Part shown: one piece after another, positions 5,951-29,197 of the stretch
How positions within the stretch are numbered: the first letter of the stretch is position 1
Layout: every line of letters starts with the position of its first letter
Position numbers and translations under genes: made by a program
Notes under the pieces: generated by a model
Told to the model about the DNA's origin: nothing
Databases searched by the model: none
What the model saw: the letters and a program-made list of their open reading frames with translations, nothing else
NCBI GenBank assembly: GCA_965246835.1
Contig: CBDFFQ010000001.1
Location: 2,558,451-2,622,450, forward strand
Reading direction: 5' to 3'
Source of the DNA: Acetobacteraceae bacterium
GTDB taxonomy: Bacteria > Pseudomonadota > Alphaproteobacteria > Acetobacterales > Acetobacteraceae
Length of the DNA: 64,000 nucleotides

Positions 5951-6025
5951 TGGGGCGTCGCCAAGCGGTAAGGCAGCGGACTTTGAATCCGCCATTCGAA
6001 GGTTCGAATCCTTCCGCCCCAACCA
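5951..6025 (+). tRNA. tRNA-Gln (anticodon TTG)
   Basis: TGGGGCG acceptor stem pairs with CGCCCCA. Anticodon loop CTTTGAA. T-arm GGTTCGAATCC. Encoded CCA end. Confidence 0.9.
6009..6025. repeat. attL: 17-bp direct repeat (tRNA-Gln 3' end)
   Basis: TCCTTCCGCCCCAACCA is identical to 52162..52178. Confidence 0.85.
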
Positions 6026-6302: not shown

Positions 6303-7838
6303 ATGAGCGACGAAGAAGCAACCCCCGAAAAAATCATCGAGGTTCTGGAAGCGGCTCTTGCGGTGAGTGAAGCCGTAGCGGTCGCGGCTGCGCGCCGCGA
6401 CGACGTCGCCGCACAGGTGACTGCGTTGAAAAATGCGGTGACGCTGGTGCGGCAGGCTGAGGCAAACAGCACGATTATCGCGGGCATGCAGGAGAGGGCC
6501 GCGGAACTGGTGCCGGAACTGGAGCGTGTGGGACGGTCGGTTGGTCAGCAGCGGGACGCGGCAGCCCTGTCTCCCGCCGCCCTGAAGTCACTCCGCAGCA
6601 TCATGTCCACCGCGGGGATGGTGATGCGGGATACGCCGTCTCCTACCGTCCTGACCTACCTCGAAAAGACCTACCTTTTGGAGCGTCGGCTGAAGGACGA
6701 CGGCCGTCGTCACATGCAGGGGTATGTGAGGTTGTTTGCGAAAATCCTCGGTGACCGGCCGCTGAACACGTTCGAACGCAGCGACGTCCTGAAATGGGTG
6801 AAGACGCTGGAGCGGGTGCCGACGAGCTACGGCAAGGGCGGGAAGGATGCTCATAAGACCATCGCCGTCATTCTACGGGAGGCGAACAAAGGCAAGAAGC
6901 CTCGCCTTGGGGAGACCACCATCAGGAAGCACGTCACCCACCTTCAGGCATTCTTCCTGTCGGCCATCACGCACCACAAGTTTGCCACCGGCGATGATGT
7001 GCGCGGATGGTTCGGCAACATCGTCCTGAGCGAGGCTGTGCCTGTGGCGAAGGAGCGCATCATCTGGTCGACGGTAAAGCTCCGGCAGCTGCTCACAGGC
7101 CCTGTCTGGACAGGCACTCACAGCCTGAAAGCCGTGTTCTCGTCCCGCTCGAAGCCCGGTCCCTGGATACACCTTGATGCATGCTGGTGGTTGCCCGTCA
7201 TTGCCCTGCACACGGGCGCACGGCTTGAGGAAATTGCTCAGCTGTATCACCACGACCTGCTCTACGACTCAGGCGGCTTGCCTTTCCTTGACCTGACGGA
7301 CGAAGGCGACCGCGAGTTGAAGAACGAGCACAGCAAACGTGCCGTGCCCATTCACCCGTTCCTGCGGGAAATCGGCTTCCTGGACCTGTTCAAGGCGGGG
7401 AAGAAAGGGCGGGTCTTCAGCGAACTTCGCCTGAAAGGGACCGAGGGGAAGCTGAGTGCAGGATACAGCCAGCACTTCACCAAATACCGTCGGGAGCTGG
7501 GTATGTACATCCACCTGTTGGATTTTCATGCGCTTCGGCACACGTTCATCACGGCCATGCGCGAGAAGGCGAAGGCCGATGTAGGCATGGTGGCGACGAT
7601 GGTGGGACACACCCGCGACCAGGCGCTCAAGGACTTCAAGCAGACCGAGGGCTACACCCATTTTTCGGTGGCGGCCCGCCTTGAAGCGTTGGAACGGCTG
7701 GATTGGGAAGCCCAGGGCATCGACCTGTCACACCTTCGCCGGACAGTGCTGGCCGCAGGTGGTCCACGTGGTCGTGTCAGGGCGGCGGACATCGGCTTGC
7801 CTCTCGAAAAGCAGGAGCCGTCAATGGAAGATAGCTGA
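6303..7838 (+). CDS. tyrosine-type site-specific integrase
   Basis: 511 aa. Catalytic-type motifs ALHTGARLEE, HALRHTFIT, GHT...GYTHF. First gene after the tRNA. Confidence 0.85.
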   Translation: MSDEEATPEKIIEVLEAALAVSEAVAVAAARRDDVAAQVTALKNAVTLVRQAEANSTIIAGMQERAAELVPELERVGRSVGQQRDAAALSPAALKSLRSIMSTAGMVMRDTPSPTVLTYLEKTYLLERRLKDDGRRHMQGYVRLFAKILGDRPLNTFERSDVLKWVKTLERVPTSYGKGGKDAHKTIAVILREANKGKKPRLGETTIRKHVTHLQAFFLSAITHHKFATGDDVRGWFGNIVLSEAVPVAKERIIWSTVKLRQLLTGPVWTGTHSLKAVFSSRSKPGPWIHLDACWWLPVIALHTGARLEEIAQLYHHDLLYDSGGLPFLDLTDEGDRELKNEHSKRAVPIHPFLREIGFLDLFKAGKKGRVFSELRLKGTEGKLSAGYSQHFTKYRRELGMYIHLLDFHALRHTFITAMREKAKADVGMVATMVGHTRDQALKDFKQTEGYTHFSVAARLEALERLDWEAQGIDLSHLRRTVLAAGGPRGRVRAADIGLPLEKQEPSMEDS

Positions 7839-7961
7839 CAAACTCCTGTCAGCCCGGTATGCACCTCAGTTATGAGCCGCTTCCGGAACGACATAGGACG
7901 CTGACGCAAGGCCCTCCCGGGCCTGACCTCACCCGTCGCGTCGTCCGTTCCGAGGCATCTC

Positions 7962-8630
7962 ATGCCTTCCAAATCCGGCATCCTTTTTTACGGCGACCCG
8001 CACGGACGTTGGCAGCCGCTGCTCGACGAATATGCCCGCCATCCTGCCAAAGCCGTGGTCCTCCTCGGCGATTGCGAGTTGTCGGCTCCTCTCGCAGAGA
8101 CGCTGAAACCCATCAGCACTGATGGGTGTCCCATTCATTGGATTTACGGGAATCATGACAACCACACTGAAAACCAATGGGACAACCTCACAAGCGCCCC
8201 GAGCGGTTTGCATGGCCGAGTGACCGATGTGGCGGGCCTGCGGCTGGCCGGGCTGGGCGGCAATTACGCCGCTAAAATCTGGTATCCTAAGGTCGGCAAC
8301 GAGGAACCCCGTCTCCGCACACGGCGGGAATTCCTGAAGAGCTTGCCGCGCTCTGGTCGTCCCGGGACGGAATTGCCCCTTGAGCGCCGTGCTTTGATTT
8401 TCTCGGAGGACCACGACGCGCTGAAGCGGCTGCGGGCTGATGTGCTCGTGTGCCATGAAGCACCCACCAGCCATCCGCATGGGTTTGGCGGGATTGATGA
8501 GCTGGCGAAGGCGATGCGGGTGAGGCTAGTCGTGCACGGCCATCATCACGTCGGTTATCGCGGTGCGTCCCAAGACGGAATTGAGGTCCGGGGGCTCGGC
8601 ATCGCGGAGTGCTGGCGGCACGAAGTGTAG
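7962..8630 (+). CDS. calcineurin-like metallophosphoesterase
   Basis: Motifs GDPHG, LLGDCE, GNHDNH, VCHEAP, VHGHHH. Confidence 0.8.
   Translation: MPSKSGILFYGDPHGRWQPLLDEYARHPAKAVVLLGDCELSAPLAETLKPISTDGCPIHWIYGNHDNHTENQWDNLTSAPSGLHGRVTDVAGLRLAGLGGNYAAKIWYPKVGNEEPRLRTRREFLKSLPRSGRPGTELPLERRALIFSEDHDALKRLRADVLVCHEAPTSHPHGFGGIDELAKAMRVRLVVHGHHHVGYRGASQDGIEVRGLGIAECWRHEV
8109..8126. repeat. motif B copy 1 (CCCATC-N6-GATGGG)
   Basis: CCCATCAGCACTGATGGG, inside the phosphoesterase CDS. Confidence 0.7.
8356..8371. repeat. motif A copy 1 (core GTCCCGGGAC)
   Basis: gtcGTCCCGGGACgga. In a CDS, read as R-P-G-T. Confidence 0.8.
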
Positions 8631-8896
8631 CTTCACGCAACGCTGTGTGGGAGGCGTGCCATTGTCCGCCGGGATGATAAGCTCTGCTTGCTCCCTGCTT
8701 TTCAAGCTGGCACGGTCCCGCCCGAATGAGCAGGTATCGAGTCGGTGGACCAAATCAAGAGCGGGAGATATGGCGTTGTTCCGGGACAGTTCTCCGGCCT
8801 TTTAGCGCGCTTGCCATCCGGCTGTGAGGGTCCAGCCTGTGTTCGCGGCATAGGGGCGGAATTGCCGCTGGTTAACCTTCGGCTGAAGGCATTCTA

Positions 8897-9952
8897 ATGG
8901 CGTTAGCGGAAGCGGTGCCAACACCAGATGCAGTAGAGCACCTGAAGGGAACACCTCAGCGGAAGGCATCCAGAATCGCCTATTCGACCGATTCCGGCTC
9001 CATGTATCACGGGTTTATAGAAGATGTCCTGAAGCGGCCCGACGTCAGGCAATCTCGCGGCAAGGTGGACCTGATATTCACGTCTCCGCCGTTCCCACTT
9101 GTCACCAAAAAGCGCTACGGCAACGAGACGGGCGAGGCATATCTGAACTGGCTTACGTCGCTGGCCGAGCCACTGGCAGAGATGCTGGCACCGAACGGCT
9201 CTATAGTGATGGAGGTTGGAAATGCGTGGGAGAAGGGTTCGCCCACGATGTCCACGTTGCCGCTGGAGTCGCTACTGGCCTTTAAGAAGGCAGGAAACCT
9301 GCATCTCTGCCAGCATGTGATTTGTCACAATCCTGCCCGTCTTCCGAGCCCGGCAGCTTGGGTAACCATCAAGCGCCTTCGCCTGAAAGACACCTACACA
9401 CATGTCTGGTGGATGTCGAAAAGCGAATATCCGAAAGCAGACACCCGCAAAGTGCTGACTCCCTACAGCAAAGAAATGCTGAAGCTGCTCGCTCGCCAGT
9501 CCTATAACTCCGGCCAGCGCCCCTCGGGGCATAAGATTTCAGAGCGGGGCTTCATGACCGACCAGGGAGGAGCCATTCCAGCGAACGTTCTCGACTTTCA
9601 GGACGGCGACGACCGCCTTCCTCCAGCGTTGATGAAGTTCGCCGGCACCGGGTGGGACACGAAATACAGGGATTACTGCAAGGAGATGGGAGTGGATGCC
9701 CACCCGGCTCGCATGCAGATGAGTCTGGCCGCGTTCTTCATAAGCTACCTGACTGACGCAGGGGACCTGGTGCTCGATCCATTCGCGGGTTCCAACACGA
9801 CCGGTGCCTCTGCCGAGCAGTTAGGCCGGAGATGGCTAGGGGTCGAAGCCGAGGAACAATATGTAATCGGGTCAAAAGGCCGCTTCAGCGGCTTCTTCGG
9901 TGCCGGGTCGAAAGGGCAGCCCTCCTCTTCGCAGGATATCGAACATGAATGA
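8897..9952 (+). CDS. DNA methyltransferase, beta-class (N4-cytosine or N6-adenine)
   Basis: Motif IV FTSPPF precedes motif I LDPFAGSNTTG, which is the permuted order typical of the beta class. The stop overlaps the next gene's start. Confidence 0.8.
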   Translation: MALAEAVPTPDAVEHLKGTPQRKASRIAYSTDSGSMYHGFIEDVLKRPDVRQSRGKVDLIFTSPPFPLVTKKRYGNETGEAYLNWLTSLAEPLAEMLAPNGSIVMEVGNAWEKGSPTMSTLPLESLLAFKKAGNLHLCQHVICHNPARLPSPAAWVTIKRLRLKDTYTHVWWMSKSEYPKADTRKVLTPYSKEMLKLLARQSYNSGQRPSGHKISERGFMTDQGGAIPANVLDFQDGDDRLPPALMKFAGTGWDTKYRDYCKEMGVDAHPARMQMSLAAFFISYLTDAGDLVLDPFAGSNTTGASAEQLGRRWLGVEAEEQYVIGSKGRFSGFFGAGSKGQPSSSQDIEHE

Positions 9953-11534
9953 CGTGATAGCCACGGATAGTTTCGAGACCGACTTCTCCGTCGGCCCACA
10001 GGCAATCGCCAACTACAGTCGCCTGAGCTACACGATGTGGCACGCGCTGGCGGAATTCATCGACAACTCCACCCAGTCCCGCCTAAACTACGGCTCCATC
10101 ATAGATGATGTCCTGAACCAGGAGGGTACGCCCCTGGTGGTGGATATCACCCACAATCGCGTCGCCAAAACGATCACAATCTCCGACAACTCGATTGGCA
10201 TGACCAAGGACGACTTGGTTGACGCATTGAAGATTGCAATGCCGACGAAAGACAGCCGCGGTAGGTCGAAGTACGGGATGGGCATGAAGACAGCTGCCTG
10301 CTGGATAGGAGCTGTCTGGGAAATAAGCACGGTCGAGTGGCTGAGCGGAACTCGCTACTCAGCCGTCATCGACGTCGATTCTGTGAGCAAAGGCGGCAGG
10401 ATAACTATTCTGAGTAGCCCGGTCGGAGAAAACGAACACGGCACTTCGATAACCATCTCAAAGCTTCATCGGAATGTTCAGAAACGAACAGAGGGGACAA
10501 TTCGCGACTATCTTGGCTCGATGTATCGCTTTGACCTTGCGCGTGGCGCGACAAAGCTTCTCTATAACGGTACCGAAATAAAGCCCATCGATGAGTATGA
10601 CGTGGACACGGACCCCGCTGGGAACTTAATGCGGATGGACCTCCCAGGTCTGACCATCAACGGTAAAGCCGTGACGGGATGGGTAGCCATCCTGAAGAAG
10701 GGCGGCAGGAAATTCGGTGGGTTTTCGCTGTTTCAGAATGAACGCCAGATTCAGGGCTTTCCGAACGCCTGGAAGCCAAAGGTCATATTCGGCGGGGAAG
10801 ACGACGAAGGGGCCAACAATCTTGTGGCTCAGAGACTGACCGGAGTGCTCAATCTGGACGGGTTCGAGGTGTCACACACCAAGGATGCCATACTCTTTCA
10901 GGGGGATGAGGAAGAGGAGCTGGAGACGTTCCTCAAAGGTTTCACGAAGGACTATCGCGACTACGCAAAGAATAGACGGGGCCCTAAGAAGACCACCTGG
11001 ACGCGGGAGAAAGTGCGCGACCTGATGGTCGACCTGAAAAAGGAGTTTAGCAGTCCGGAATTCAAAGATACCGTAACGAACTCGGTTCTTCCGCCTATCG
11101 AGGTTATTCTGGCCGGCAACCAGAAGCAGCTCGAAAGCATCGAGCCAGCCGACCATATTGGCACGTTCGACATTCCGCCGGACCTGAAGGTGGTTGTCTC
11201 CTTCCTGGAGAAGAGTGTCTACGAGCCCTACGTGACGCTCGTCGCGGGTGCGAACCCTGGCACGATCCATGTCATTATAAACGGATTGCACCCCTATTAC
11301 TCATCGCTGGAAACCGGCGAGGCGATCCACGAGTGCATGAAGCAGTTTGTTTATGATGCGATAGCCGAATACCGAGTACGCAAGCTGTCCAGCAAGATAA
11401 GCTGGGAAAGCGTGCGGCTATTGAAAGATGACCTTCTGAAGGCGAAACTCGTTCAGATTGAGAACCGGGCGGCAGCAGAGCAGGACGGGGACGAGGTCGA
11501 TACCGGCAAGGTTGATCCAGACACGGACGAGTAA
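9945..11534 (+). CDS. GHKL-superfamily (MORC/HSP90-like) ATPase
   Basis: N-box AEFIDNS, G1 ISDNSIGM, G2 YGMGMKTAACW. Start set at ATG 9945 (MNDVIATD), which overlaps the MTase stop. Confidence 0.75.
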   Translation: MNDVIATDSFETDFSVGPQAIANYSRLSYTMWHALAEFIDNSTQSRLNYGSIIDDVLNQEGTPLVVDITHNRVAKTITISDNSIGMTKDDLVDALKIAMPTKDSRGRSKYGMGMKTAACWIGAVWEISTVEWLSGTRYSAVIDVDSVSKGGRITILSSPVGENEHGTSITISKLHRNVQKRTEGTIRDYLGSMYRFDLARGATKLLYNGTEIKPIDEYDVDTDPAGNLMRMDLPGLTINGKAVTGWVAILKKGGRKFGGFSLFQNERQIQGFPNAWKPKVIFGGEDDEGANNLVAQRLTGVLNLDGFEVSHTKDAILFQGDEEEELETFLKGFTKDYRDYAKNRRGPKKTTWTREKVRDLMVDLKKEFSSPEFKDTVTNSVLPPIEVILAGNQKQLESIEPADHIGTFDIPPDLKVVVSFLEKSVYEPYVTLVAGANPGTIHVIINGLHPYYSSLETGEAIHECMKQFVYDAIAEYRVRKLSSKISWESVRLLKDDLLKAKLVQIENRAAAEQDGDEVDTGKVDPDTDE

Positions 11535-12688
11535 TGTCACCGCTGGCACTTCGAGCGTGGCAAGAGCAGGCGTTGCCTCGATGGCGTGCACAAGGTCATC
11601 GGGGAATTGTCGAGGTGGTCACCGGGGGCGGAAAGACTGTCTTTGCGCTTGCGTGCATTGCCGACCTTAAGGCGGAAACGGTGCTCATCGTCGTTCCGAC
11701 CGTCGCTCTCCTGGAGCAGTGGTGGGCGGAGGCAGCCTCGTTCTTCGGTCTGGATCTGGATGAGATAAACATCATCTCCGGCAACCGTTCGGTCGTGAGC
11801 GGCACCATCAACATCGCCGTTCTAAATACGGCGGCGAAGCTCGCAGGCAGACGCGGTATCAAGGACTGCTTCCTTATCGTAGACGAGTGCCACAAGGCGG
11901 CGACCCCGCAGTTCAGAGCCGTTCTCGAAATTCCGAAATTTGCGGCACTGGGCCTGTCGGCTACCCCGGAGCGCCAGTATGATGACGGTCTGGCGCAAAT
12001 TCTAATTCCGGCGCTCGGCCCGGTCATTTACCAATACAGCTACCGCGAAGCCATTCTGGACGGCGTGATCGTCCGCTTCGAGCTTAGGAACATCGTCTTC
12101 GAACTGGAGGCTGACCGAGCAGCGGAATACGAGAAGCTGTCCAAATCCATTGCCCGGTCGGTTGATCGATTCGGGATTGAGTCCGAGCAGGCAATTGCCC
12201 TCCTGCTCCGACGGACAAGGCTGGTAAACCTCAGCCTGGAACGCATTCGTATCACTATCAGGCTCATAAACCGGCACAAGGGTGCGCGCATCCTCGTTTT
12301 CCACGAGGACATCGAAGCGTGCGATCTGATCCTGCAATTCCTCAGGGAGGCGGAGTTCCGGGCGGGGGCCTACCACTCCAGACTTCCGGCCCGGCAACGT
12401 GTCGAGTCACTTGCGGCCTTCCGCCGGGGTGACCTCGACATCCTGATTACGTGTCGTGCGCTTGACGAGGGTTTCAATGTTCCTGAAGCGCAGGTGGGCA
12501 TCATCGCGGCCAGTACGGCAACGCGCCGTCAGCGCATTCAGCGACTGGGCCGCGTCCTCCGACCTGCGGCAGGTAAGAGCGAAGCGGTTGTGTATACCTT
12601 GGTTGCCACGGGACCCGAGGTAGGCAGGCTGAAGGAAGAGGAAGATGGATTGGCGGACCTGGCGACAGTCACCTGGGTCCATGCATGA
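11534..12688 (+). CDS. SF2 DEAD/DEAH-box helicase (type III restriction res-like)
   Basis: Walker A TGGGKT, DECHK, SATP, QRLGRVLR. TAATG overlap with the upstream gene. Confidence 0.8.
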   Translation: MSPLALRAWQEQALPRWRAQGHRGIVEVVTGGGKTVFALACIADLKAETVLIVVPTVALLEQWWAEAASFFGLDLDEINIISGNRSVVSGTINIAVLNTAAKLAGRRGIKDCFLIVDECHKAATPQFRAVLEIPKFAALGLSATPERQYDDGLAQILIPALGPVIYQYSYREAILDGVIVRFELRNIVFELEADRAAEYEKLSKSIARSVDRFGIESEQAIALLLRRTRLVNLSLERIRITIRLINRHKGARILVFHEDIEACDLILQFLREAEFRAGAYHSRLPARQRVESLAAFRRGDLDILITCRALDEGFNVPEAQVGIIAASTATRRQRIQRLGRVLRPAAGKSEAVVYTLVATGPEVGRLKEEEDGLADLATVTWVHA

Positions 12689-13458
12689 AAAAGATGTTTG
12701 TCGGCAACTGTTCGCCGGAGACGCTCTTCGAAATGACGGACCCCGACAGCGTGTCGGAGACAGCCTTTGAGGCGTGGGTCGTCCGGGCACTGGCCTGCGC
12801 GTTCCCGAGCTACCGCTGCGTTATCTTCACGGGCTCGTTTCAATACGAAGGCCGTACATTCCGGCCGGACCTGGCCTTGCTGTCGCGTGACCTGTCTCAC
12901 TGGTTCATCATTGAGGTCGAGCTGACGACGCACTCGCTTTACCAGCACGTTCTGCCCCAGGTGCGCGCATTCAGATACGGCGAGCCACAAGCTGATTGCG
13001 CGCCCGGTCTGGCTACGGCGCTGGGTCTGCCGCTTGGGCAGGCGGAGACGCTGGTCCGGCGCATCCCGTATGGCATTGCAGTTGTAGCTAATCGAGATAA
13101 TCGAGACTGGTGGGTAGCGCTCAACGCGCACGAGATACAGATGCTCACCGTTTCAGCGTATACGTGCCCAAAGGGGATTGAGGCTTTGGAGGTTGATGGC
13201 TCCCTGGAAGTCGTGAAGGACAGTCTGGGGTTCGGGATTTATTCCGCAGCGGTTCGGTCACTTCGGTTCAGCCCGCTGCTCAGGGTTGTCGGACCGCGCG
13301 TTTTGATACGGGACTATTTCGGAGGCCTGTCCTGGTGGCTCGTTCATCGTGACGTAGATGCAACCTGGCTGACCAAGGAGCTCGGGACACCTGACATCGA
13401 CGATAGCAAACACGTGCAGCTTGTGGCGACCCGCGACGGCGGATTATCCCTAAGATGA
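12685..13458 (+). CDS. hypothetical protein, possible PD-(D/E)xK-fold nuclease
   Basis: ATGA overlap with the helicase. FRPDLALLSRDLSHWFIIEVELTTH resembles a restriction-endonuclease-like core, but the lysine is not obvious. Confidence 0.5.
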   Translation: MKKMFVGNCSPETLFEMTDPDSVSETAFEAWVVRALACAFPSYRCVIFTGSFQYEGRTFRPDLALLSRDLSHWFIIEVELTTHSLYQHVLPQVRAFRYGEPQADCAPGLATALGLPLGQAETLVRRIPYGIAVVANRDNRDWWVALNAHEIQMLTVSAYTCPKGIEALEVDGSLEVVKDSLGFGIYSAAVRSLRFSPLLRVVGPRVLIRDYFGGLSWWLVHRDVDATWLTKELGTPDIDDSKHVQLVATRDGGLSLR

Positions 13459-13981
13459 CCGGGGCGGCAGGCTGGGTAACGCGTCTGAAACCATCGTCAA
13501 ATTCCGGCCGGGGGCACGCTCAGTTTAGAACACCACTGAGGCTGCCAATGGGTCAGGGCGGTCTAGAGGAGGCACCGCTCCGACTCAATGACGAACAGCA
13601 CGACTATTTGGGACCGCTGCTAAGCCGCCTTCAATCCTTGGTCACGGGAGACGTACTGGGCATCCGGGAACTCGGCACGGAGTGCGGCGACGACCGCTGC
13701 ATCGGCCCCCCACAGGACGAGAGCTGACCCTTTGCCGGATCCAGAATTCCGCCCTTGCCCAGAGCCGTCAATAAATTTCACCCGACGCTTCAGCAGCAGC
13801 ACGTCAGCGACACCGTAAACACTTGCTGACCACCACCGGGTATCAAAGCTTCCGGGGACAAGCCCCACGACCAGCGAGGCCTCACCAGTATCGACCGCTC
13901 GGGCGCAACGTTCGACGCAGGCGACGATTTCGCGTCCGTACGGGGGATTCGCGTACACAACACCCTCCCACCGCGCCACTA

Positions 13982-15033
13982 GAGCGGTTTCCATTCATTC
14001 TGGCTCATACCCGGCGGCAGTGAAGTAGCTGGCGCAGTCCTGCGCGGTAAAGCAGGGAAGCGCGTTGCGGATCACGTCCCATAGGTCGTCGATCGTGCGT
14101 GCTGCTGCCTTGCGCAGGTAGGCTTTGAGCTTGGAGAAGGCATTCTCGATTGGGTTGAAGTCGGGGGAGTAGGGCGGCAGGTAGCGTAGCGTGGCCCCAA
14201 CTGCCTCGATCGCCCGCCGCACGTCTGCGCCTTTATGCGCGGGCAGATTATCCATGATGACGGTGTCGCCTCGGTGGAGCGTGGGCACCAGCACCTGCTC
14301 GATGTAGGCCTGGAAGGCGATGCGGTTCATCGGGCCGTCGAGGACCATGGGCGCGGTCATGCCGCTGACCCGAAGCGCGCCGGTGAAGGTGGTCGTCTTC
14401 CAGTGACCATGCGGCACGGCGGCGCGGCAGCGCTCGCCTTTGCGGGCGCGGCCGCGGATCCGGGCCATCTTGGTCGATGCGCCGGTCTCGTCGATGAAGA
14501 CCAGGCGCTTGGGGTCGAGGTCAGGCTGGCCTGCGAACCAGGCTCGCCGTCGGGCTGCGACGTCGGGCCGCTCCTGCTCGGCTGCGTGCGCTGTTTTTTT
14601 TGAAGGTGAGGCCGTGGCGGTCGAGGCAGCGCCAGATGGTGCTGGGGCCGAACGAGGCGCCGTGGTGGTCGCGCAGCAGGTCCGACAGCTCAGCCAAGCT
14701 GATGTCCTTCTGGGCCGCGACCGCTGTCAGGATCACGCCGCTGAAGGCCTCGATCCGACGCGAGCGGGTGTCGCCGCCCTGCGGCTTGGGCGCGACGGAC
14801 CCGGTCGTATTGACTGCCTGCACCCACCGGACGGCGCTCGCAGCTGAAACACCAAACCGCTCCGCCGCAGCGCGCCGAGACATGCCGTCTGCAACCGCCG
14901 CAACAAGCCGGGACCGTAGATCGACGGAAAGAATCTTCCCCATGCACGCTGGCCTCCTAACCAGCCTGCATGGTGAATCACATCACGCCCGCGTCGGGGA
15001 ATCCCTTTGATTCAGACCGGACGAGAACCGCTC
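13982..15033 (-). mobile_element. IS630-family insertion sequence, copy 1 (1052 bp)
   Basis: Terminal inverted repeats GAGCGGTT(C/T)C. Flanked by TA/TA within CTAG. All six-frame ORFs are identical to copies 2 and 3. Confidence 0.9.
13995..14943 (-). CDS. IS630-family DDE transposase (two frames joined at a T8/A8 run)
   Basis: orfA is an HTH part (14521..14943). orfB is the DDE part ([28 protein letters not shown]). The A8 run lies at 14594..14601. Confidence 0.85.
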
Positions 15034-15553
15034 TAGTGCATCCTCCTCGCGGGTGATGTAGCGGATTGCGGGCACAGGGCTTCGCTCCATCCCCGGCGAG
15101 AACGCATCTACATCGAACTGCTCGCGGCCCAGGGCCTTGAGAATACGGGCGAGCAATGGCTTGGGCGTGTACCATTCGACATGGGTACTGGGTCCGCGCC
15201 CGAAAAAGGGTTTCACCTCATCTTCGCCGGTCACTGCAAGCCGTTCGAAGGCACGATGTGTGTCCTGGGACGCACCGACATCATTGGCAGCCGTCGGCCG
15301 CTGCTTTCCGCGCTTCGAGACATGCCGCCGCAGCGGCTGCTCTCCCCGTCGCGCAAGGCAACCATCCAACTGACGAAGAACCCACTCATGGAGTGGCGCG
15401 CCGTCATTGGCTGCATGCCGGTGAAGGCGGTCCAGGTCCTCGCGATAGAGATAAAGCGAAGTGGCCGAGGTCTCGCGCTTGATGCCGGTCCGGGTATCAT
15501 CCTTTTCGTCGCGGCGGTTTCGCGTCGGCGGGGTTGTCACCGCCGCTTTCGTC

Positions 15554-15569
15554 TCCGTCCCGGGACGGA
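15554..15569. repeat. motif A copy 2 (perfect 16-bp palindrome)
   Basis: TCCGTCCCGGGACGGA, inside the MTase CDS. Confidence 0.8.
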
Positions 15570-15822
15570 CGACCGCGACCTCTCGCGCGGCTTTCACCAG
15601 CGGAGCCAGGACGTGCTTGCCCAGCCACGCGACGACCGGAATGGACAGGCCGTCACCGATGCACTTCACAGCCGACGACAGGGCATCCGGAAGGACGAAA
15701 TCATCCGGCAGACCCGACAACCGCGCCAACTCCCGACCGGAGAAATCTCGGATGCGGACACCGGTCGGGTCGGCACGAAGCACCAGCTGGCGCGCACGCC
15801 CCGCGGTGAAACACCGGGCAAT

Positions 15823-15840
15823 CCCATCGGTGTAGATGGG
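15823..15840. repeat. motif B copy 6
   Basis: CCCATCGGTGTAGATGGG, inside the MTase CDS. Confidence 0.65.
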
Positions 15841-16847
15841 AAGTGCAGGAGTGCATCCTTCACGCCGGTCGGTACGCTGGGCGGCAATGATGCCGAGCAC
15901 GGAGCTATCGGCCCGCATGCGCTCCACATCAGCCACGTCGGCTGCTCGGCAACCGGCAAGGATGCGCTCCACACGGTCCGGCTTGAACCAGGCGTGACCA
16001 TCGTCATCGTCCAGCAATTCTGCCAGAGACGGCACCGGAGCGTCCGGTTGCGGCATCGTCAGCCACAACCATTCCCGTCGCGCAGCCAGAGGAAGGCGGG
16101 CGACGGCCTGCACGAGTGGCGCGGGGTGCCATGCGGGGTCCGGCTTCTTCAGCAGCATGTTCGAAGGGACGACCACATCGCGCCGGATGGCTACGATGAA
16201 CAGGCGCTTACGCAGAACCGGACGGAACCGGTCGGCATCGATGACCACAGCGCCGACCCGGTAGCCGAGGTTCAGAAAGGTCTGAACAAGGGCCGCAAAG
16301 TCTCGGCTCTCAGCATGAGAGGCGAACCGGGTCACATTCTCGCAGCAGACTACCGGTGGCATCGTGCCGAGCAGACTGTGTTCACCCAGGATTCGGGACA
16401 CATCGAACACGAGGCTGGCCCGCATACCCTTGAGGCCTGCGCCGTCTCCGAGCGCTGAGTGGTTCACACAGGGAAAGCTGACCCAGAACAGGTCAGCGAC
16501 AGTCATTCCGACAGCGCGGACTTCTTTGATGCTCCGTTCATCGAAAGGGACATCGGGATGATTCTGCCGGAAAACGGCAGCTTTGAGCGGGCTGTTGTCG
16601 TTGGCGAGAGCAGTCTTGAAAGCGGGGGCGAGAGCAATGCCTGCGCCGCCGATACCGGCGAAAAACTCAATGAGAGTGTAGGTTTCCTGCTGATTGTCGT
16701 CCATTTTGAAATTCCGAACACGCGCGCACGTTCGGACCGGCTGACCGGCGTAGGGTCAGGGGTCCCGTCGGGGGCGGGCCGCGCGCCGGATGGCACGGGC
16801 CGGAGCGCGTTATCATTTCGAAACAGTCGGTTCGGAGGTTCATCGCT

Positions 16848-20488: not shown

Positions 20489-21571
20489 TCAATCGCTTCG
20501 GCTGCTGCGCACGGCCAAAACACCCATGAGAATGCGATCGATAGCGTCTGGCCCGTCGGCCAAAGCGGGCGGGCCATCAACAAATTCCAAGCCAGCATCG
20601 ACCGGGTAAACGCTCATCTTGCCTATCCCGGCTGTTACCGCGTCCTGAACGAACGCCTGAAATTCGGCATTTGGGGCCGCGTTCGCGCGAAAGACGAAGC
20701 CGGCGATCAGGTCGCATAGCTGCAGCGACGAGCACTCGTGGCTACGGGCGCTGGTCGTCGACGTTACAGATATTGGTAACGTGAGCGTCTTCTTGTTGCC
20801 CACTTGGATGACTTGAGCGGGATGGGTCGCATCGGTCATCTCCGACCAGCGCCGACTACGCGCGAAGAAATGCTTGCTCTCATCGTGGAAGACCGCGAAC
20901 GGCCCTGTGTGACGGCTCTGCCAGTGAGCCATGCTCGACACTAAGCTTGTAACATGGATATCGTTCGAATCCTTGAGTAGTGACAGATTAGTACCTTGGA
21001 GGCGATTGACTCCCTCCACCATCAAGCTCAGGAAGGGGGTTGTTTCCTCAGGCGCACTGAGTGTTACATTCTTGAGGGCCGCCTGAAGACGGCTAAGCGT
21101 GTTGGCATCCGGCGCGCGTCCAAACGCGTTGTAAGCCGCAAAAAGAACTGTCAGAGCATCTTTGTTCAGGAAATTGTCAAACGCGAAATAAGCCATATTA
21201 GCATAGCGTGCAGCATAGTCATCTTTGTAGAAATCATAACCATTTGCACGCACCACTGGCTCTGTAAGATAGTCAACCATCTTGCAGAGCACTGCAAAGT
21301 GCTTATTTATTTTGGTCGCAACAAAGCGTTCGGGCTGTAAGCCTACCTCCTGTGCAAATGAAAGAAATGCACGACGACCCTGAGATCGCTTAAATATTTC
21401 CTTCGACTTAATTTCCGGCCCTTTTTGAAGCGGGAAGCAGCGCCTTATTATGTCGGTAGCCTCATCCTCCTGGATGTCCGTGCTGCCAATTGTGAAGTAG
21501 GGCTGCTCAGAGTCGAGTAACTCAGTGCCAGTATTGCCACTTTCGTCAAAGTAAATTCTCGTAACGTCCAT
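20489..21571 (-). CDS. DUF3800-like protein
   Basis: Start set at MDVTRIYFDESGNTG, the characteristic DUF3800 N-terminus. Lies in an AT-richer block. Confidence 0.65.
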   Translation of the reverse strand: MDVTRIYFDESGNTGTELLDSEQPYFTIGSTDIQEDEATDIIRRCFPLQKGPEIKSKEIFKRSQGRRAFLSFAQEVGLQPERFVATKINKHFAVLCKMVDYLTEPVVRANGYDFYKDDYAARYANMAYFAFDNFLNKDALTVLFAAYNAFGRAPDANTLSRLQAALKNVTLSAPEETTPFLSLMVEGVNRLQGTNLSLLKDSNDIHVTSLVSSMAHWQSRHTGPFAVFHDESKHFFARSRRWSEMTDATHPAQVIQVGNKKTLTLPISVTSTTSARSHECSSLQLCDLIAGFVFRANAAPNAEFQAFVQDAVTAGIGKMSVYPVDAGLEFVDGPPALADGPDAIDRILMGVLAVRSSRSD

Positions 21572-21866
21572 CCTGCCCTCTTGTAGCGCAAAGCTGGTCC
21601 AGGCACTAAGTCTGACCTGCCGCACGCCCCCCCAAAACACCCCAGAAGGGGATAATTTAGCCTACTGCGGCAAGACCGCAAATGGCCGCTTTCCGTCACA
21701 AGGGCTCACCCGTCCACATGGGTGCTCCCTCCCGAGACACCCACGCCGAACATTCGTCCTGGGACGAACCCGTCTCGTCAGGGTTAGCTTGCCGATATCC
21801 GAGACAAACAGCTGACTTTCCGGACCGGGGTCTAGGATAATCCGAGACACAGCAACGGAGTTTTGG

Positions 21867-22567: not shown

Positions 22568-23998
22568 ATGGCAAACCGCCGATTCGTTTTCCTCGGTCAC
22601 GCGAACCCGCATGACAACGCATTTACCCTGTGGCTGGGTGCTCGACTGAGCGCCGCAGGGTTTGAGGTTTGGTCAGACCTGCGCCAGCTCCACGGAGGCG
22701 AGACGTTCTGGAACGACATCGAGGACGGACTTCGGCAACACACCGCAGTCTACGTTCCGATCCTGTCAAATTCCTCAGTGAACCGCGAGCGACGCGGCTT
22801 CCACGATGAAATCGCCATGGCCGTCCAGATTATGAGAACCCCGAACATGGAGCGGTTCATACAGCCGGTCATGATCGAGCGGGTTCATCCGGTCCCTCCT
22901 CCGCTTATTCAGCTCAACTACATCGACTTCACCGGAGGCTGGGCGAACGGCCTTCTGAGGCTCATCACTGCACTGGAAAAGTCCGGCGTTCCCAGAACGG
23001 ACAACCCGCCGACACAGGCGGTTTCGGCTTGGCGTGGCTATCAGGCAAGCGCCGCCGGGGCTGCGCAAGAGGCGGACGATCCCGAGCGTCTCTCGACCAC
23101 ATGGTTCGGCATCGACGGTCTGCCGCCCCGCATTCGTCTGGTTAAATCGCCTGTGGCATTCGACACCTGGACCAGGCTGCTGACGAATCATGGTGTGCCG
23201 CATGCCATCCATGGGGATGAGGTGCTTACTTTTGCCTCCGCGAAGCACATCGAGGAGCGACTGGGCGCGGACATCCCTGTCAGGCAATCGGCAGAGCACC
23301 GCACGGAACGTTTCCTCGTGGGTGACACGGGAAAAAACGGACTGCGTATTCGACCCGGGGAAGCGCAACGGCTCGTCGCCGGCATGATCAACCGGAGCTG
23401 GGACATTTTTGCTGCCTCTCGTGGGCTGCACCGTCATGAACTCTCGAAATCGACCGCATGGTTTTTCCCGCTCGACCTTCTTGGCGGAAAAACCCGGTTC
23501 GAGAAGGAAGTCGGCGGAATCGGTGAAAGAGCGTTGATCGGTCGAAAGGGGAAGTTGGGAGTGCGATGGCATTTTGCCCTGTCGGCAAGGTTCGAGTTGC
23601 GTGAGCCAAGCCGCCTGATCGTCCGCTCGCATGTGCTGTTCAGCCAAGGCGGGACGGCGATGTTGGACAGCAAGAAAGCCCAGCGGCTGCGCAAATCGCT
23701 CTGCAAAGGTTGGTGGAACGACGAATGGCGGGACCGGCTTCAACTTGCCATGGCATACTTGAGCCAACGCGAGGGAGCGCTCCGTCTGCCGCTTCGGCAC
23801 AGCCCGACCCTGCGGCTTACCTTGGGTGACGCATGGGTCGATGTGGCAGCCCGTTCCATGCTCTTCGAGAGCGTGTCTTCGTTCCAGCGCCCACGCACGG
23901 AGGCAGAGCGGGAAGAGCCGAACGACAAGGCATTCGACGAGGAGGTTCGCGCGCCGGAGCTACCGGACGGTGACGATGACGACGAGGACGAGAAGTGA
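22568..23998 (+). CDS. TIR-APAZ protein (SPARTA-type effector partner of a short pAgo)
   Basis: N-terminal TIR-like FVFLGHANPHDNAFTLWLGARLSAAGFEVWSDLRQLHGGETFWNDIEDGL...HDEIAMAV, followed by about 330 aa. The stop overlaps the pAgo start. Confidence 0.8.
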   Translation: MANRRFVFLGHANPHDNAFTLWLGARLSAAGFEVWSDLRQLHGGETFWNDIEDGLRQHTAVYVPILSNSSVNRERRGFHDEIAMAVQIMRTPNMERFIQPVMIERVHPVPPPLIQLNYIDFTGGWANGLLRLITALEKSGVPRTDNPPTQAVSAWRGYQASAAGAAQEADDPERLSTTWFGIDGLPPRIRLVKSPVAFDTWTRLLTNHGVPHAIHGDEVLTFASAKHIEERLGADIPVRQSAEHRTERFLVGDTGKNGLRIRPGEAQRLVAGMINRSWDIFAASRGLHRHELSKSTAWFFPLDLLGGKTRFEKEVGGIGERALIGRKGKLGVRWHFALSARFELREPSRLIVRSHVLFSQGGTAMLDSKKAQRLRKSLCKGWWNDEWRDRLQLAMAYLSQREGALRLPLRHSPTLRLTLGDAWVDVAARSMLFESVSSFQRPRTEAEREEPNDKAFDEEVRAPELPDGDDDDEDEK

Positions 23999-25467
23999 CC
24001 GTGCGAAAGCTCCTGAAGCTGCCGGAGCCACTTCTTCGCGTTGGACATGCACAGCTGACGGATAATCCGAAAGACGGTCTGTTTCTCTTCGGGCCGGTTA
24101 TCGATGCAGAGCACCCACGCCAACTCCGGCTCGGGATCATCGGAACCACGGAGGGCTTACTTCGGTATCAGCGTTGGGCAAAGCGCATGCGGGGGTTCAT
24201 TCCCGCGCCTGAGAAGGCCCGTGCCTTTCACATGGCGTGGCCCGGCTTCGAAGCCGCTTTCAGCTGCGAATGGCCGGAAGAGCCTGTTGCCACCCTGGTT
24301 GTTGACGGCACCGAAATATTCAATGCGATCCATATCCGGGACCGCCATGAGGCAATTTACAAAACTGTCGACCTGTTCCTTCAGCCTATGCTGGCCCACA
24401 CACGCAAGGAGGAAAGCAGGCCTACTCTGTGGTTCGTCGTCATCCCGGAGGACATATACAAGTTCGGCAGGGAGAAATCGCTGATACCGCCCCACCTCAG
24501 ACAGCCCTCATCAAGCCGGGCCGGTGACAAGGTGGTAAGGGCCAGCCTGAAGCTTGGTCAGGGGCTTCTGTTAACCGACGACGCTGAAGGTGCGCGGCTT
24601 CACCGGTTTTCCAGGGATTTCCACAATCAGCTGAAGGCCCGGCTGCTGCGAGAGCGCATTGCCATTCAGATCGTCCGGGAGACGACGCTTGCGCCCGAGG
24701 ACTTCCTGACGAACTTCGGCAAGCCTGCGCGGGTCATGGAGGATGAGGCGACACGGGCGTGGAATCTCGGTGTCGGAACCTTCTTCAAAGGTGAGGGGAA
24801 GCCGTGGAGCCTGGCCGCCGCTCGGCCGGGGGTGTGCTACATAGGCCTTGTCTTCAAGAAGGTTCCGGGGGGACCGGTAGGGTATTCTGCCTGCGGAGCC
24901 CAGATGTTTCTGGACTCCGGCGTGGGCACGGTGTTTCGAGGGGCCATGGGTCCCTGGCGTAGCCCTGAGGACAAATCATATCACCTCTCGGAAGACGCTG
25001 CCGCCGACCTCGCGAGGGTCGTCATCGCCGAGTTTGAGCGGAAGCATCACGGCGCACGGCCGACCGAGTTGTTCATCCACGGACGCATTGCCTTCTCCGA
25101 TGCTGAGTGGCGTGGCTTTTCAGCCGCTGTCGATTACCGAACGAATCTCGTCGGGGTTCGCATCCGTCAGACCGATGAACTGAAGGCATTCACACCGGGT
25201 GAGATGCCATTGCTCCGGGGTCATGCCCTAATCCTGACACCGACAAAGGCTTTCTTGTGGAGCAACGGCTTTGTGCCACGCCTGGACACGTATCCCGGCT
25301 GGGAGGTCCCGCGCCCGCTGGCGATTGACGTCGTCCGGGGCGAGGCGGGCATGGAAACGGTGCTCGGTGACGTGTTGGCGTTGACCAAGCTCAACTACAA
25401 TTCCGCAGGTTACGGGTCCGGCCTTCCGGTCACTCTCGGCTTTGCCGATGCTGTCGGAGAGATTCTA

Positions 25468-26519
25468 GAGCGGTTCTCGTCCGGTCTGAATCAAAGGGAT
25501 TCCCCGACGCGGGCGTGATGTGATTCACCATGCAGGCTGGTTAGGAGGCCAGCGTGCATGGGGAAGATTCTTTCCGTCGATCTACGGTCCCGGCTTGTTG
25601 CGGCGGTTGCAGACGGCATGTCTCGGCGCGCTGCGGCGGAGCGGTTTGGTGTTTCAGCTGCGAGCGCCGTCCGGTGGGTGCAGGCAGTCAATACGACCGG
25701 GTCCGTCGCGCCCAAGCCGCAGGGCGGCGACACCCGCTCGCGTCGGATCGAGGCCTTCAGCGGCGTGATCCTGACAGCGGTCGCGGCCCAGAAGGACATC
25801 AGCTTGGCTGAGCTGTCGGACCTGCTGCGCGACCACCACGGCGCCTCGTTCGGCCCCAGCACCATCTGGCGCTGCCTCGACCGCCACGGCCTCACCTTCA
25901 AAAAAAACAGCGCACGCAGCCGAGCAGGAGCGGCCCGACGTCGCAGCCCGACGGCGAGCCTGGTTCGCAGGCCAGCCTGACCTCGACCCCAAGCGCCTGG
26001 TCTTCATCGACGAGACCGGCGCATCGACCAAGATGGCCCGGATCCGCGGCCGCGCCCGCAAAGGCGAGCGCTGCCGCGCCGCCGTGCCGCATGGTCACTG
26101 GAAGACGACCACCTTCACCGGCGCGCTTCGGGTCAGCGGCATGACCGCGCCCATGGTCCTCGACGGCCCGATGAACCGCATCGCCTTCCAGGCCTACATC
26201 GAGCAGGTGCTGGTGCCCACGCTCCACCGAGGCGACACCGTCATCATGGATAATCTGCCCGCGCATAAAGGCGCAGACGTGCGGCGGGCGATCGAGGCAG
26301 TTGGGGCCACGCTACGCTACCTGCCGCCCTACTCCCCCGACTTCAACCCAATCGAGAATGCCTTCTCCAAGCTCAAAGCCTACCTGCGCAAGGCAGCAGC
26401 ACGCACGATCGACGACCTATGGGACGTGATCCGCAACGCGCTTCCCTGCTTTACCGCGCAGGACTGCGCCAGCTACTTCACTGCCGCCGGGTATGAGCCA
26501 GAATGAATGGAAACCGCTC
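25468..26519 (+). mobile_element. IS630-family insertion sequence, copy 3
   Basis: Same ends and ORFs as the other copies. TA duplication in CTAG. Confidence 0.9.
25558..26506 (+). CDS. IS630-family DDE transposase (frames joined at A8 25900..25907)
   Basis: Identical to copies 1 and 2. Confidence 0.85.
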
Positions 26520-26652: not shown

Positions 26653-27198
26653 TCAGTGGCCGCCGTAAAGCGCGTTGTAGTCTGACTTGGCAACAAAAGC
26701 TCCGATGAGTCTGCACAACGGCTCACCGGCGGCAATCAACAACGCTCCCAGCAGGTTCTTCCTGGATAGATCGCCTCGACGTGCGGCAATTTCATCAACA
26801 CGAGCCATTGCCAGAAAAGCCATCAAGGCAGACACGTGCCGGGAATTGCGCATGGCTTTCACAACCGGTATCGCCCAAACATGATATCCGCGATAAGTCT
26901 GTTCGGAAATCCGTGAAGAAGCATCTTCGGAGCACAACCGGTAATCGTCTTGTGACATCCTGCCCTGTGAGTAGAGTTCGGTGCAGATCACTTTCTTTTT
27001 TTCAGCCGGTTCGCTGGTCCAAGGCGTTTGCCCCGACCAGAGCAAGTTGTCCCTTGCCGTTTCGCTTCCGTGAGCCGAGGCGATCTGCCATGAATCAATC
27101 TGGCTCTGCTGAGCGAGGGCGTGGTTTTGTTCTCGCCGAGCCGCTTTTTGGTCGGCGGCCCACTGCATCTGCCTTGAGAACTCGTCATCGGAAGCCAT
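26653..27198 (-). CDS. hypothetical protein
   Basis: Start set at MASDDEFSRQMQW. Coding-like. Divergent from the next gene. No domain recognised. Confidence 0.5.
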   Translation of the reverse strand: MASDDEFSRQMQWAADQKAARREQNHALAQQSQIDSWQIASAHGSETARDNLLWSGQTPWTSEPAEKKKVICTELYSQGRMSQDDYRLCSEDASSRISEQTYRGYHVWAIPVVKAMRNSRHVSALMAFLAMARVDEIAARRGDLSRKNLLGALLIAAGEPLCRLIGAFVAKSDYNALYGGH

Positions 27199-27456
27199 CG
27201 GTTGCACTCCCAGATCAAAGGCCGGCACTACGTTTACCAGCCTGACCCACATACAGTGCGCCGCCTCTCTTTCGAATAGGTATGCAGAAATTGCATCTGC
27301 GCCATCGGCACGGAGTGAGCAAATAACCAAACTTAGAGGGGAACGTTGTTGGACGGCGAGCCCCGGGGAAAAGCTGCTGGCTGGCGGCCGGTCCATAAAC
27401 GACCGGTTGCGGGACACGTGCATATCTGCAGGTTCGCGTCGTGCTATCCTGCTCCC

Positions 27457-28725: not shown

Positions 28726-29197
28726 GCAAGGTGGCGCAGGTGACGATCCGCTTTCCCGTCGTGACAGGAGGCGCGGACCAACACCTGTCCGGTACGTGTA
28801 AGTCTCCTGGGTTTTTTTGCCGACTTTGTAACTGACGTCCACGGGACCTACCCTGCTGTTCACCATCATCAACTTCTTTGTTTGGATTGTAGACTGGCTG
28901 AGGGCAGACTCGAATACGGCAGGCCATTTTGACAATTCGGGCTTTCTCGAACGATCTGCCGTCCATACGTCCTGCTTGATTCTGGCCCTTGCTGGTGCTT
29001 ATCTTCTGAGCGGAAAGTTACAAGACGAGCCCGGGTCCAATCAAATTGGTTTTGTGGGGACTTTTGCAGGTCTTTCGCTATTACTCTTAAGCGACGGGTT
29101 CAATATCAAAAAGGAACTCATCTCTTTAGTTCGAAAGTTTCTGACACTTGCATTGGTGGTAGTCGCATTCCTACTACATCAATGCAGTCATTCGCAA

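Follow-up and report, generated by a model that had tools for sequence, protein, structure and literature searches.

A predicted four-gene, ATP-dependent restriction-modification cassette with a MORC-type ATPase on a mobile island of an Acetobacteraceae bacterium

Prokaryotic MORC-type ATPases have been tied to restriction-modification by genome context since 2008, when a purely computational study of gene neighborhoods predicted operons combining a MORC or paraMORC ATPase with a superfamily 2 (SF2) helicase (Rad25-like helicases included), a nuclease with a restriction endonuclease (RE) fold and a DNA methylase (Iyer, Abhiman and Aravind, 2008; PMC2292703). Literature searches for an experimental study of a restriction system composed of a MORC protein, an XPB-like helicase and a nuclease found none. 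Located within a 64,000-nucleotide (nt) stretch of the genome of an Acetobacteraceae bacterium (NCBI GenBank assembly GCA_965246835.1, contig CBDFFQ010000001.1, positions 2,558,451 to 2,622,450 of the forward strand; hereafter the window) is a 4.6-kb cassette of four genes, designated here MT, GHKL, HEL and P257, that encode a methyltransferase, a putative MORC-type ATPase, an XPB/Rad25-like helicase or translocase and a predicted nuclease. The catalytic motifs of all four proteins are intact and invariant, and the cassette is best read as a horizontally mobile, four-gene system predicted to carry out ATP-dependent restriction-modification.

Among the operons described in 2008, those of type 1, which couple MORC to a Rad25-like helicase, fit the cassette best. 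Features held in common are a GHKL ATPase joined to an S5 domain with a MORC-like motif, a Rad25/XPB-like helicase, an RE-fold nuclease and a methylase within one operon, as well as the lateral mobility and patchy occurrence of the operons; moreover, taxa in which the cassette is found (Bradyrhizobium, Caulobacter, Acidobacteria) overlap the species given in that study (PMC2292703). An earlier, sequence-only reading of the window had noted that a link between GHKL/MORC ATPases and restriction-modification genes had been predicted computationally. Two differences set the cassette apart: the Rad25-like helicases of the published class are "commonly fused" to the nuclease, whereas here the nuclease is a separate protein of 257 residues that also carries a beta-barrel, and the published methylases are "mostly cytosine [C5], rarely adenine," whereas MT is a beta-class enzyme with an SPPF motif.

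The closest studied analogue is the CglI/NgoAVII group, whose nuclease subunit bears a B3-like domain and is paired with an SF2 translocase that is a distinct protein; the translocase is required for cleavage, which depends on one-dimensional communication powered by ATP (PMC4267653, PMC4267654, PMC5737866, PMC5861437). These systems resemble the cassette in having a stand-alone methylase, a small nuclease subunit with a barrel-type (B3-like) domain and a separate SF2 helicase-like translocase of double-stranded DNA (dsDNA), and they offer a working model of how a site is recognized, ATP-driven communication along DNA proceeds and cleavage follows. In contrast, the R subunits of CglI and NgoAVII use a phospholipase D (PLD) nuclease while P257 has a predicted PD-(D/E)xK fold, CglI lacks the GHKL ATPase that the cassette possesses, and sequence homology between the respective subunits is not detectable.

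Layout and conservation of the cassette

Gene positions were taken from a six-frame list of open reading frames (ORFs) in the window, and gene junctions were read straight from the sequence. The genes of the cassette are as follows:

8897-9952, forward strand: MT, 351 residues, beta-class amino-DNA methyltransferase (Pfam N6_N4_Mtase)
9945-11534, forward strand: GHKL, 529 residues from ATG, putative MORC-type GHKL+S5 ATPase (Pfam HATPase_c_3)
11534-12688, forward strand: HEL, 384 residues, XPB/Rad25-like SF2 helicase or dsDNA translocase (Pfam ResIII and Helicase_C)
12685-13458, forward strand: P257, 257 residues, predicted restriction nuclease subunit

The operon is tightly coupled: as the sequence-only reading had claimed, all junctions between the four genes overlap, by 8 nt between MT and GHKL (ATGAATGA), by 1 nt between GHKL and HEL (TAATG) and by 4 nt between HEL and P257 (ATGA). 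That reading had gone on to take the overlaps as a sign of one co-translated complex; the overlapping genes do speak for translational coupling, but overlap does not show a complex. The GHKL frame is also open from an upstream GTG at 9900, and the ATG start was preferred because the public gene call is likewise of 529 residues and homologues align from approximately residue 7-13. A promoter and terminator scan of positions 7800-14100 yielded sites no more numerous than those in shuffled sequence. The GC content of the cassette is 0.574 (57.4%) as compared to 0.70-0.72 in the flanking core genome, and the cassette begins 1 kb downstream of a tyrosine integrase gene (6303-7838) that itself lies beside a tRNA-Gln gene (5951-6025), in agreement with the previous description of an AT-richer block right after the integrase.

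Scanning one genome per species yielded 47 loci that carry a P257 homologue, and conservation was assessed at these. The full set of four genes occurs at 33 of them, 29 with the order seen in the window on a single strand and four in which MT is replaced by a paralogue of approximately 45% identity on the opposite strand, and most of the remaining loci are ended by contig edges or visibly decayed. Gene-neighborhood conservation had been proposed as a check on the original grouping of the genes, and the synteny observed at these 33 loci extends over at least eight phyla, so that the proposed refutation, a lack of co-conservation, clearly fails. The hosts of the 47 loci belong to the Alpha-, Beta- and Gammaproteobacteria, Acidobacteriota, Planctomycetota, Bacteroidota, Gemmatimonadota, Verrucomicrobiota and candidate phyla, and P257 protein matches occur in Gloeobacter and Krumholzibacteriia as well. 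The four-gene arrangement is far beyond what chance would produce. The stop of HEL overlaps the start of P257 by 4 nt, as (A/G)TGA, in 38 of 38 evaluable loci, and the two are separate ORFs both in the window and at all 38, while the other two junctions lie within a few tens of bases across loci. Two loci have the order GHKL-MT-HEL-P257, and a distant branch of the P257 family (E about 1e-28) is accompanied by the same four parts as MT-HEL-P257-GHKL; gene membership, then, is fixed while gene order varies. Clustering of all flanking ORFs of the loci revealed no fifth conserved gene. Divergence co-varies among P257, HEL and GHKL with rho values of 0.55-0.71, as compared to 0.11-0.48 for MT against those three.

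The P257 family is larger than the set of loci, with 221 matches in a word-indexed search and 645 representatives at 50% clustering, nearly all of them stand-alone proteins of approximately 260 residues. A fusion ("Rosetta stone") search through the best 150 of the 645 representatives found no helicase fusion, and almost all of these were stand-alone proteins of approximately 260 residues or fragments. Homologues of P257 were found neither in INPHARED phages nor in IMG/VR viral contigs or PLSDB plasmids; one match from the genome collection, in Pararhizobium (L009), is plasmid-borne.

Several individual observations accompany these data. An ORF of the window designated orf90 (13455-13727), which overlaps P257 through ATGA and extends into a convergent methylase gene at that gene's 3' end, was considered as a component and set aside, as it has no Pfam, PADLOC or NCBIfam match and no homologue in any of the 47 loci. 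In L001 (8318-9285), the closest homologue in the genome collection (P257 identity 57%), HEL is broken after residue 146 by an insertion sequence of approximately 1 kb, whose DDE transposase is encoded by two ORFs on the opposite strand. Lastly, a metagenome-assembled genome of the Opitutaceae (L046, 11201-14364) contains a complete GHKL-MT-HEL-P257 cassette followed directly by a second P257-like gene (293 residues, 28% identity), a second GHKL (503 residues, 35%) and then a SRAP peptidase; the extra pair is without a second helicase or methylase, and two nuclease-GHKL pairs may here use one motor and one methylase.

The four proteins

Residues and segments of P257 on which the nuclease prediction is built are these:

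12757-12759, forward strand: E25, in the putative N-terminal PD-(D/E)xK domain
within 12865-12879, forward strand: P61-D62 of PDLAL, N-terminal domain
within 12907-12924, forward strand: E77-V-E79 of IIEVEL, N-terminal domain
12931-12960, forward strand: HSLxxHVLPQ helix, following E77-V-E79
approximately 13132-13455, forward strand: C-terminal all-beta barrel, residues ~150-257 (AlphaFold model)

No Pfam, NCBIfam or PADLOC model matches P257, PADLOC having been taken to E = 10. The AlphaFold (AF2) model, with a predicted local distance difference test score (pLDDT) of 94.5 and a predicted template modeling score (pTM) of 0.86, divides the protein into two domains. The first has the topology alpha-beta-beta-beta-alpha-beta, the order of the PD-(D/E)xK core, made up of helix 25-39 (with E25), strands 43-47, 63-67 (P61-D62) and 73-79 (E77-V-E79), helix 85-98 and strand 129-135. 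Nuclease matches returned by Foldseek from the PDB are R2 RLE, N.BspD6I, Bax1, MunI and DrdV, and named matches in the viral structure library BFVD are almost all PD-(D/E)XK proteins; R.NgoAVII, EcoRII-N and BfiI-C are absent from the top 50 Foldseek matches. Invariant in an alignment reaching down to approximately 20% identity are E25, D62, W73, E77, E79, H83, H88, Q92, W142, G172 and W218. The active site of BamHI (E77, D94, E111 and E113) has an E/D/ExE arrangement, and the E25/D62/E77-x-E79 site of P257 resembles it, with lysine changed to glutamate in both. This high-confidence model assigns the N-terminal domain to the PD-(D/E)xK fold, and the acidic site of the domain is invariant; the sequence-only reading had suspected a restriction-endonuclease fold in this protein, a suggestion that stands as far as the fold is concerned, and had overlooked the second domain. 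The closest PDB matches of that C-terminal barrel are plant B3 DNA-binding domains (probability 0.91-1.0, target TM-score 0.44-0.50), and the barrel, which with a mean pairwise identity of 40% is less conserved than any other part of the system, may be a DNA reader.

Motifs of HEL:

11621-11638, forward strand: TGGGKT
11882-11893, forward strand: DECH
11957-11965, forward strand: SAT
12530-12562, forward strand: motif VI, QRIQRLGRVLR

Previously described as a small DECH helicase, which the DECH motif and its Pfam matches (ResIII 6e-21, Helicase_C 2e-20, ERCC3_RAD25_C 7e-10) bear out, HEL is more specifically a minimal XPB/Rad25-like SF2 helicase or dsDNA translocase. Its closest solved relatives are archaeal XPBs: it aligns to residues 92-455 of Archaeoglobus fulgidus XPB (2fwr) at 1.7e-39 and to archaeal XPBII at 5e-32, and NCBIfam returns XPB at 1.5e-30 together with the helicase part of dnd_restrict_1 at 6e-56. 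The N-terminal damage-recognition domain of XPB is missing, the thumb is shortened, and the sequence ERQYDD occupies the place of the XPB RED motif.

Motifs of GHKL:

10053-10067, forward strand: N-box, E37..N41
10185-10202, forward strand: DNSIGM (D81-N-S-I-G85-M)
10275-10292, forward strand: GMGMKT (G111-M-G113-M-K115-T)
10719-10751, forward strand: MORC-like S5 motif GFSLFQNERQI (residues 259-269)
10872-10886, forward strand: SHTKD

All four ATP-binding motifs (N-box, G1, G2 and motif IV, G166-T167) are present in the window protein and invariant across 30 homologues, for which mean column identity is 68%. Consistent with the earlier assignment to HSP90/MutL/MORC-type GHKL proteins, HATPase_c_3 matches at 1e-20, and an AlphaFold model of moderate quality (pLDDT 71) is matched by Foldseek to MORC2 (9cdj, 9cdh), MORC3 (5ix2) and the N+M domains of Hsp90/TRAP1 over approximately 400 columns, with E-values of 1e-14 to 1e-13. 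The alignments to MORC2, MORC3 and Hsp90 place an S5-fold transducer directly C-terminal to the GHKL domain, and the last 130 residues are modeled as a beta-sheet with long helices. The MORC family is defined by the S5 motif GhXhhpXXRhl (PMC2292703). The sequence GFSLFQNERQI agrees with it in 10 of 11 positions, Q taking the place of an expected hydrophobic residue, and G259, F260, F263, Q264, R267 and Q268 are invariant in the 30 homologues. A Pfam scan at E <= 0.01 returned two HATPase_c families, and the MORC S5 model, Morc6_S5, was not among them. We call the protein MORC-type on the strength of motif and modeled fold, a label that does not separate MORC from paraMORC. At 17 bits, where the cut-off is 550, an alignment of residues 161-217 with the BbrUII/HgiDII restriction-enzyme model is not significant.

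Motifs of MT:

9083-9094, forward strand: motif IV SPPF (residues 63-66)
9776-9805, forward strand: S-adenosylmethionine (SAM) motif I DPFAGSNTTG (residues 294-303)

That SPPF lies N-terminal to DPFAGSNTTG is the beta-class motif order. MT matches PF01555 at 7e-31 and the PADLOC Type II model MTase_II (PDLC03323) at 5e-78, whereas the best Type III model (MTase_III) reaches 8e-11, and the original identification of a beta-class SPPF methyltransferase is borne out. Of 37 homologues linked to the cassette, 36 keep the motif as SPPF or SPPY. A motif IV of the form SPP[YF], rather than [DN]PP[YF], marks N4-cytosine methyltransferases, which form N4-methylcytosine (m4C), and by this rule MT is a probable N4-cytosine enzyme that marks self DNA.

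Comparison with other described systems further defines the cassette. Mza, reported in PMC9523054 (citing Gao 2020) to be validated experimentally, shares the plan of a methylase, a GHKL ATPase, an SF2-like motor and a nuclease, and the paraMORC3-type Shedu protein VcSduA is a validated GHKL-containing defense (PMC12137116); neither architecture is homologous to the cassette, and membership in Mza was rejected on a score of 12.9 bits for the window GHKL against an MzaB cut-off of 850. Hma, a candidate defense system that similarly combines helicase (HmaA), 5-methylcytosine (m5C) methylase (HmaB) and ATPase (HmaC) (PMC8565338), was the class named in the sequence-only reading, a comparison that does not hold: HmaB is an m5C enzyme while MT is a beta-class N6/N4 enzyme, Hma is without a P257-like gene, no Hma model is among the 25 matches listed for HEL or MT (the 25th for HEL having E = 2.7e-4), and none matches GHKL or P257 even at E = 10. 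The Pbe system comprises PbeA, an HKD nuclease fused to an SF2 helicase, the CxC ABC ATPase PbeC and the DndE-like PbeD (PMC10853773). Assignment to PbeABCD or dnd was likewise rejected, as PbeA (profile positions 251-636 of 672) and TIGR04095 (190 bits against a cut-off of 600) match HEL in the helicase module only and no HKD nuclease, ABC ATPase or DndE is present.

A proposed mechanism and competing explanations

In the mechanism proposed here, MT alone, like a Type II methylase, would modify a specific site in host DNA, probably to N4-methylcytosine, and GHKL, HEL and P257 together would constitute the restriction enzyme. P257 would supply the cleavage site through its BamHI-like E/D/ExE PD-(D/E)xK center, and its variable C-terminal B3-like barrel would probably recognize the unmodified site. 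HEL, the XPB-like motor, would hydrolyze ATP and translocate along dsDNA away from that site, a division of labor between motor and nuclease comparable to that in the pairs H.CglI/R.CglI and archaeal XPB/Bax1. A dimer of the MORC-type GHKL protein would close on DNA as an ATP-driven clamp that loops or holds it, and would not license cleavage until long-range communication had taken place, in line with the proposal of Iyer et al. for this class (PMC2292703). Unmodified incoming phage or plasmid DNA would be cut, and self DNA spared. A HEL-P257 subcomplex would fit the universal coupling of the two genes, the XPB ancestry of HEL and the archaeal XPB-Bax1 precedent.

That the cassette is a restriction-modification-type defense module has, in our estimation, a probability of roughly 80%; the full mechanism, with P257 as site reader and a GHKL clamp that licenses cleavage, is held with less assurance, as somewhat better than an even bet. 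A still more specific form, in which the MORC clamp is loaded at the unmethylated site read by the P257 barrel and the XPB-type translocase drives DNA through the clamp, or against it, up to the point at which cleavage is licensed, is offered tentatively, as a possible but doubtful extension.

Several findings weigh against this proposal. Firstly, P257 matches no sequence profile of a described nuclease family: a Pfam run on all 30 family members gave no match, and a family-profile search of PDB sequences at E = 10 matched nothing. Fold E-values are weak (at best 0.024 in the PDB and 1.2e-3 in BFVD) and no match covers the whole protein, while the canonical lysine of the (D/E)xK motif is replaced by glutamate. 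Secondly, the B3-like assignment of the barrel depends on TM-scores of approximately 0.45-0.50, ATP-synthase N-terminal barrels score as well, and the domain could be a generic small barrel. Thirdly, the target recognition domain (TRD) of MT shows no specific covariation with the C-terminal domain of P257 (rho 0.34, as compared to 0.35 for the N-terminal domain), a comparison that thus lends no support to site reading by P257; its power is low, as TRD and catalytic core are equally conserved (0.59 both), and such conservation of the TRD suggests a single specificity family-wide. Fourthly, the role ascribed to GHKL in licensing cleavage is drawn entirely by analogy. Finally, an intact-looking GHKL-HEL-P257 set in Variovorax (L038, 7215-10780), whose neighbors encode a caspase-domain protein and a sigma-54 activator, has no methylase within 10 kb, so that either the methylase is located elsewhere or the restriction genes are tolerated without one, and L008, L013, L017, L031 and L045 carry deletions or frameshifts and are, with L001, decayed copies. 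Frequent decay is typical of restriction-modification genes.

The choice of separate modification and restriction enzymes must be set against a Type III-like organization, in which MT would be the sole sequence reader within the restriction complex, HEL and P257 a split Res, GHKL an accessory, and the P257 barrel a domain that binds a partner protein. Type III systems such as EcoP15I are ATP-dependent and, like the cassette, combine a beta-class PF01555 methylase (Mod) with a Res consisting of a ResIII-type SF2 helicase and an RE-fold (PD-(D/E)xK) nuclease; operons with Rad25-like helicases have been placed next to Type III systems (PMC2292703), translational coupling links MT to GHKL in the window, MT matches MTase_III models, if weakly, and the lack of covariation with the TRD in a barrel that is also the least conserved part of P257 is in keeping with this view. 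However, Res is one polypeptide, whereas helicase and nuclease are encoded separately in the cassette at all evaluable loci and no fusion appeared among the best 150 family representatives, observations on which a classical Type III system was rejected; Mod is the large recognition subunit of its complex, whereas MT is small, Type II-like by a wide difference in model score, and exchangeable; and canonical Type III systems are without the GHKL ATPase that the cassette encodes. Such an organization is accordingly judged unlikely. Separate modification and restriction enzymes are favored because MT is small and Type II-like, gives way to a paralogue at four loci (and is missing beside one further set), and is poorly correlated in divergence with the three restriction-side genes. 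If MT stands outside the complex, recognition of the site must fall to a restriction-side component, and the P257 barrel is the obvious candidate by analogy to R.CglI and R.NgoAVII.

A role that is not primarily anti-phage is a very improbable alternative. The cassette might be a selfish addiction or stabilization module of its island, or HEL and P257 might be a DNA-repair or recombination pair in the manner of XPB and Bax1, with methylation as a marker of strand or self (compare MutL/MutH). HEL is XPB-like, archaeal XPB has a partner nuclease encoded adjacent to it, and Bax1 is among the weak fold matches of P257; MutL belongs to the GHKL proteins; and the cassette always lies on mobile DNA and was not found in the phage collections searched. 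In contrast, XPB-Bax1 is a repair machine without methylase or GHKL, HEL lacks the domain by which XPB recognizes damage, and the similarity of P257 to Bax1 is confined to the generic nuclease core (probability 0.3-0.66). The patchy, cross-phylum distribution and frequent decay are typical of defense and restriction-modification rather than of repair genes, a dedicated methylase is linked, and the cassette lies beside a SPARTA system on a defense-rich island; restriction-modification systems are, moreover, themselves addictive, so that an addiction role overlaps the mechanism proposed above.

Least credible of all is a BREX- or DISARM-like exclusion or modification-dependent system that does not cleave, in which the methylase would mark self DNA, the ATPases would block the replication of unmarked DNA or attack modified foreign DNA, and P257 would be a sensor: BREX and similar multi-ATPase, methylase-linked systems do act without an obvious cleavage step, P257 is missing the canonical lysine and HEL resembles PbeA, whose system reportedly acts without DNA degradation, but the four acidic residues of P257 are, with H83, H88 and Q92, invariant family-wide as expected of a catalytic center, no BREX or DISARM component (PADLOC) and no Dnd component was detected, and Pbe itself is, in the argument of Aravind and colleagues, a DNA-cleaving system.

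The island and the significance of the cassette

A 46-kb island (6009-52178) inserted at tRNA-Gln carries the cassette as its first cargo; features of the island are as follows:

5951-6025: tRNA-Gln (ARAGORN)
6009-6025, forward strand: attL, 17-bp direct repeat TCCTTCCGCCCCAACCA at the 3' end of tRNA-Gln (exact repeat)
6303-7838, forward strand: tyrosine integrase (Phage_integrase 2e-06)
7962-8630, forward strand: metallophosphoesterase (MPE), 222 residues (Pfam Metallophos)
13620-16704, reverse strand: fusion of a C5-cytosine methylase and a phage-type Dam (N6-adenine) domain, interrupted by an IS630-family element
13995-14468 (DDE_3) and 14521-14943 (HTH): ORFs of the IS630-family element, inside the C5-methylase/Dam gene
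20489-21640, reverse strand: DUF3800 protein
22568-23998, forward strand: TIR-APAZ protein (PADLOC Aga_TIR-PNTD1-PNTD2 4e-112)
23995-25518, forward strand: short pAgo (pAgo_I 2e-177), overlapping the TIR-APAZ gene
26653-27423 (reverse strand), 27346-28725 (forward strand) and 30445-33453 (forward strand; 1002 residues): ORFs without Pfam or PADLOC match, in the AT-richer part of the island
34494-35693, reverse strand: IS256/Mutator-family transposase (3e-121)
42335-44260, reverse strand: MobA/VirD2 relaxase (family match)
48330-49322, reverse strand: RepC (family match)
49258-51288, reverse strand: PrimPol-AAA_25 protein (family match)
52162-52178, forward strand: attR, second copy of the 17-bp repeat (exact repeat)

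The GC content of the island is 0.61, as compared to 0.70-0.72 outside, and the repeat ends coincide with the step in GC. Because it encodes an integrase, a relaxase, RepC and a PrimPol-AAA_25 protein, the island is by its gene content an integrative mobilizable element, and a defense-rich one: by their profile matches, the TIR-APAZ and short pAgo genes are a SPARTA-type defense system. This setting is consistent with a defense role for the cassette.

Between integrase and cassette sits the MPE gene, which encodes a stand-alone, calcineurin-like protein. Its possible membership in the system, left open in the sequence-only reading, was considered and rejected, since in none of the 47 loci (0/47) does an MPE homologue lie within 10 kb of the cassette. 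On the other side of the cassette, the IS630-family element has inverted ends (...TAGAGCGGTT / AACCGCTCTA...) near 13980 and 15030, and when the Dam pieces on either side are joined they match profile positions 11-145 continuously, at 57.7 bits as compared to 41.7 for the fragment alone. Further insertion sequences are present on the island, and the ORFs at 26653-33453 that are without a family match could be uncharacterized cargo.

New within the computationally predicted class are a free-standing, two-domain candidate nuclease and a beta-class SPPF methylase. The nuclease family at the center of the cassette is unannotated in databases, and loci of this kind are probably under-counted in defense catalogues, because current defense-finder models register an orphan Type II methylase and a partial PbeA match only. 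Compact at 4.6 kb, complete and widespread, with strictly conserved catalytic residues, the cassette is a good entry point to the class. Its characterization would assign a function to the P257 family and test whether a GHKL clamp and an XPB-like translocase cooperate, and may yield a new ATP-dependent restriction specificity; it would also inform models of eukaryotic MORC proteins and make the long-standing question of what prokaryotic MORCs do addressable in a 4.6-kb construct. If a clamp loaded at the unmethylated site and driven by a second motor proved to be true, the cassette would exemplify, in its smallest natural version, a separate class of restriction enzymes that use two different ATP motors, would represent a prokaryotic, ancestor-like state of eukaryotic MORC silencing, that is, of methylation-aware DNA entrapment, and would offer a compact four-gene system for the genetic and structural dissection of the MORC mechanism.

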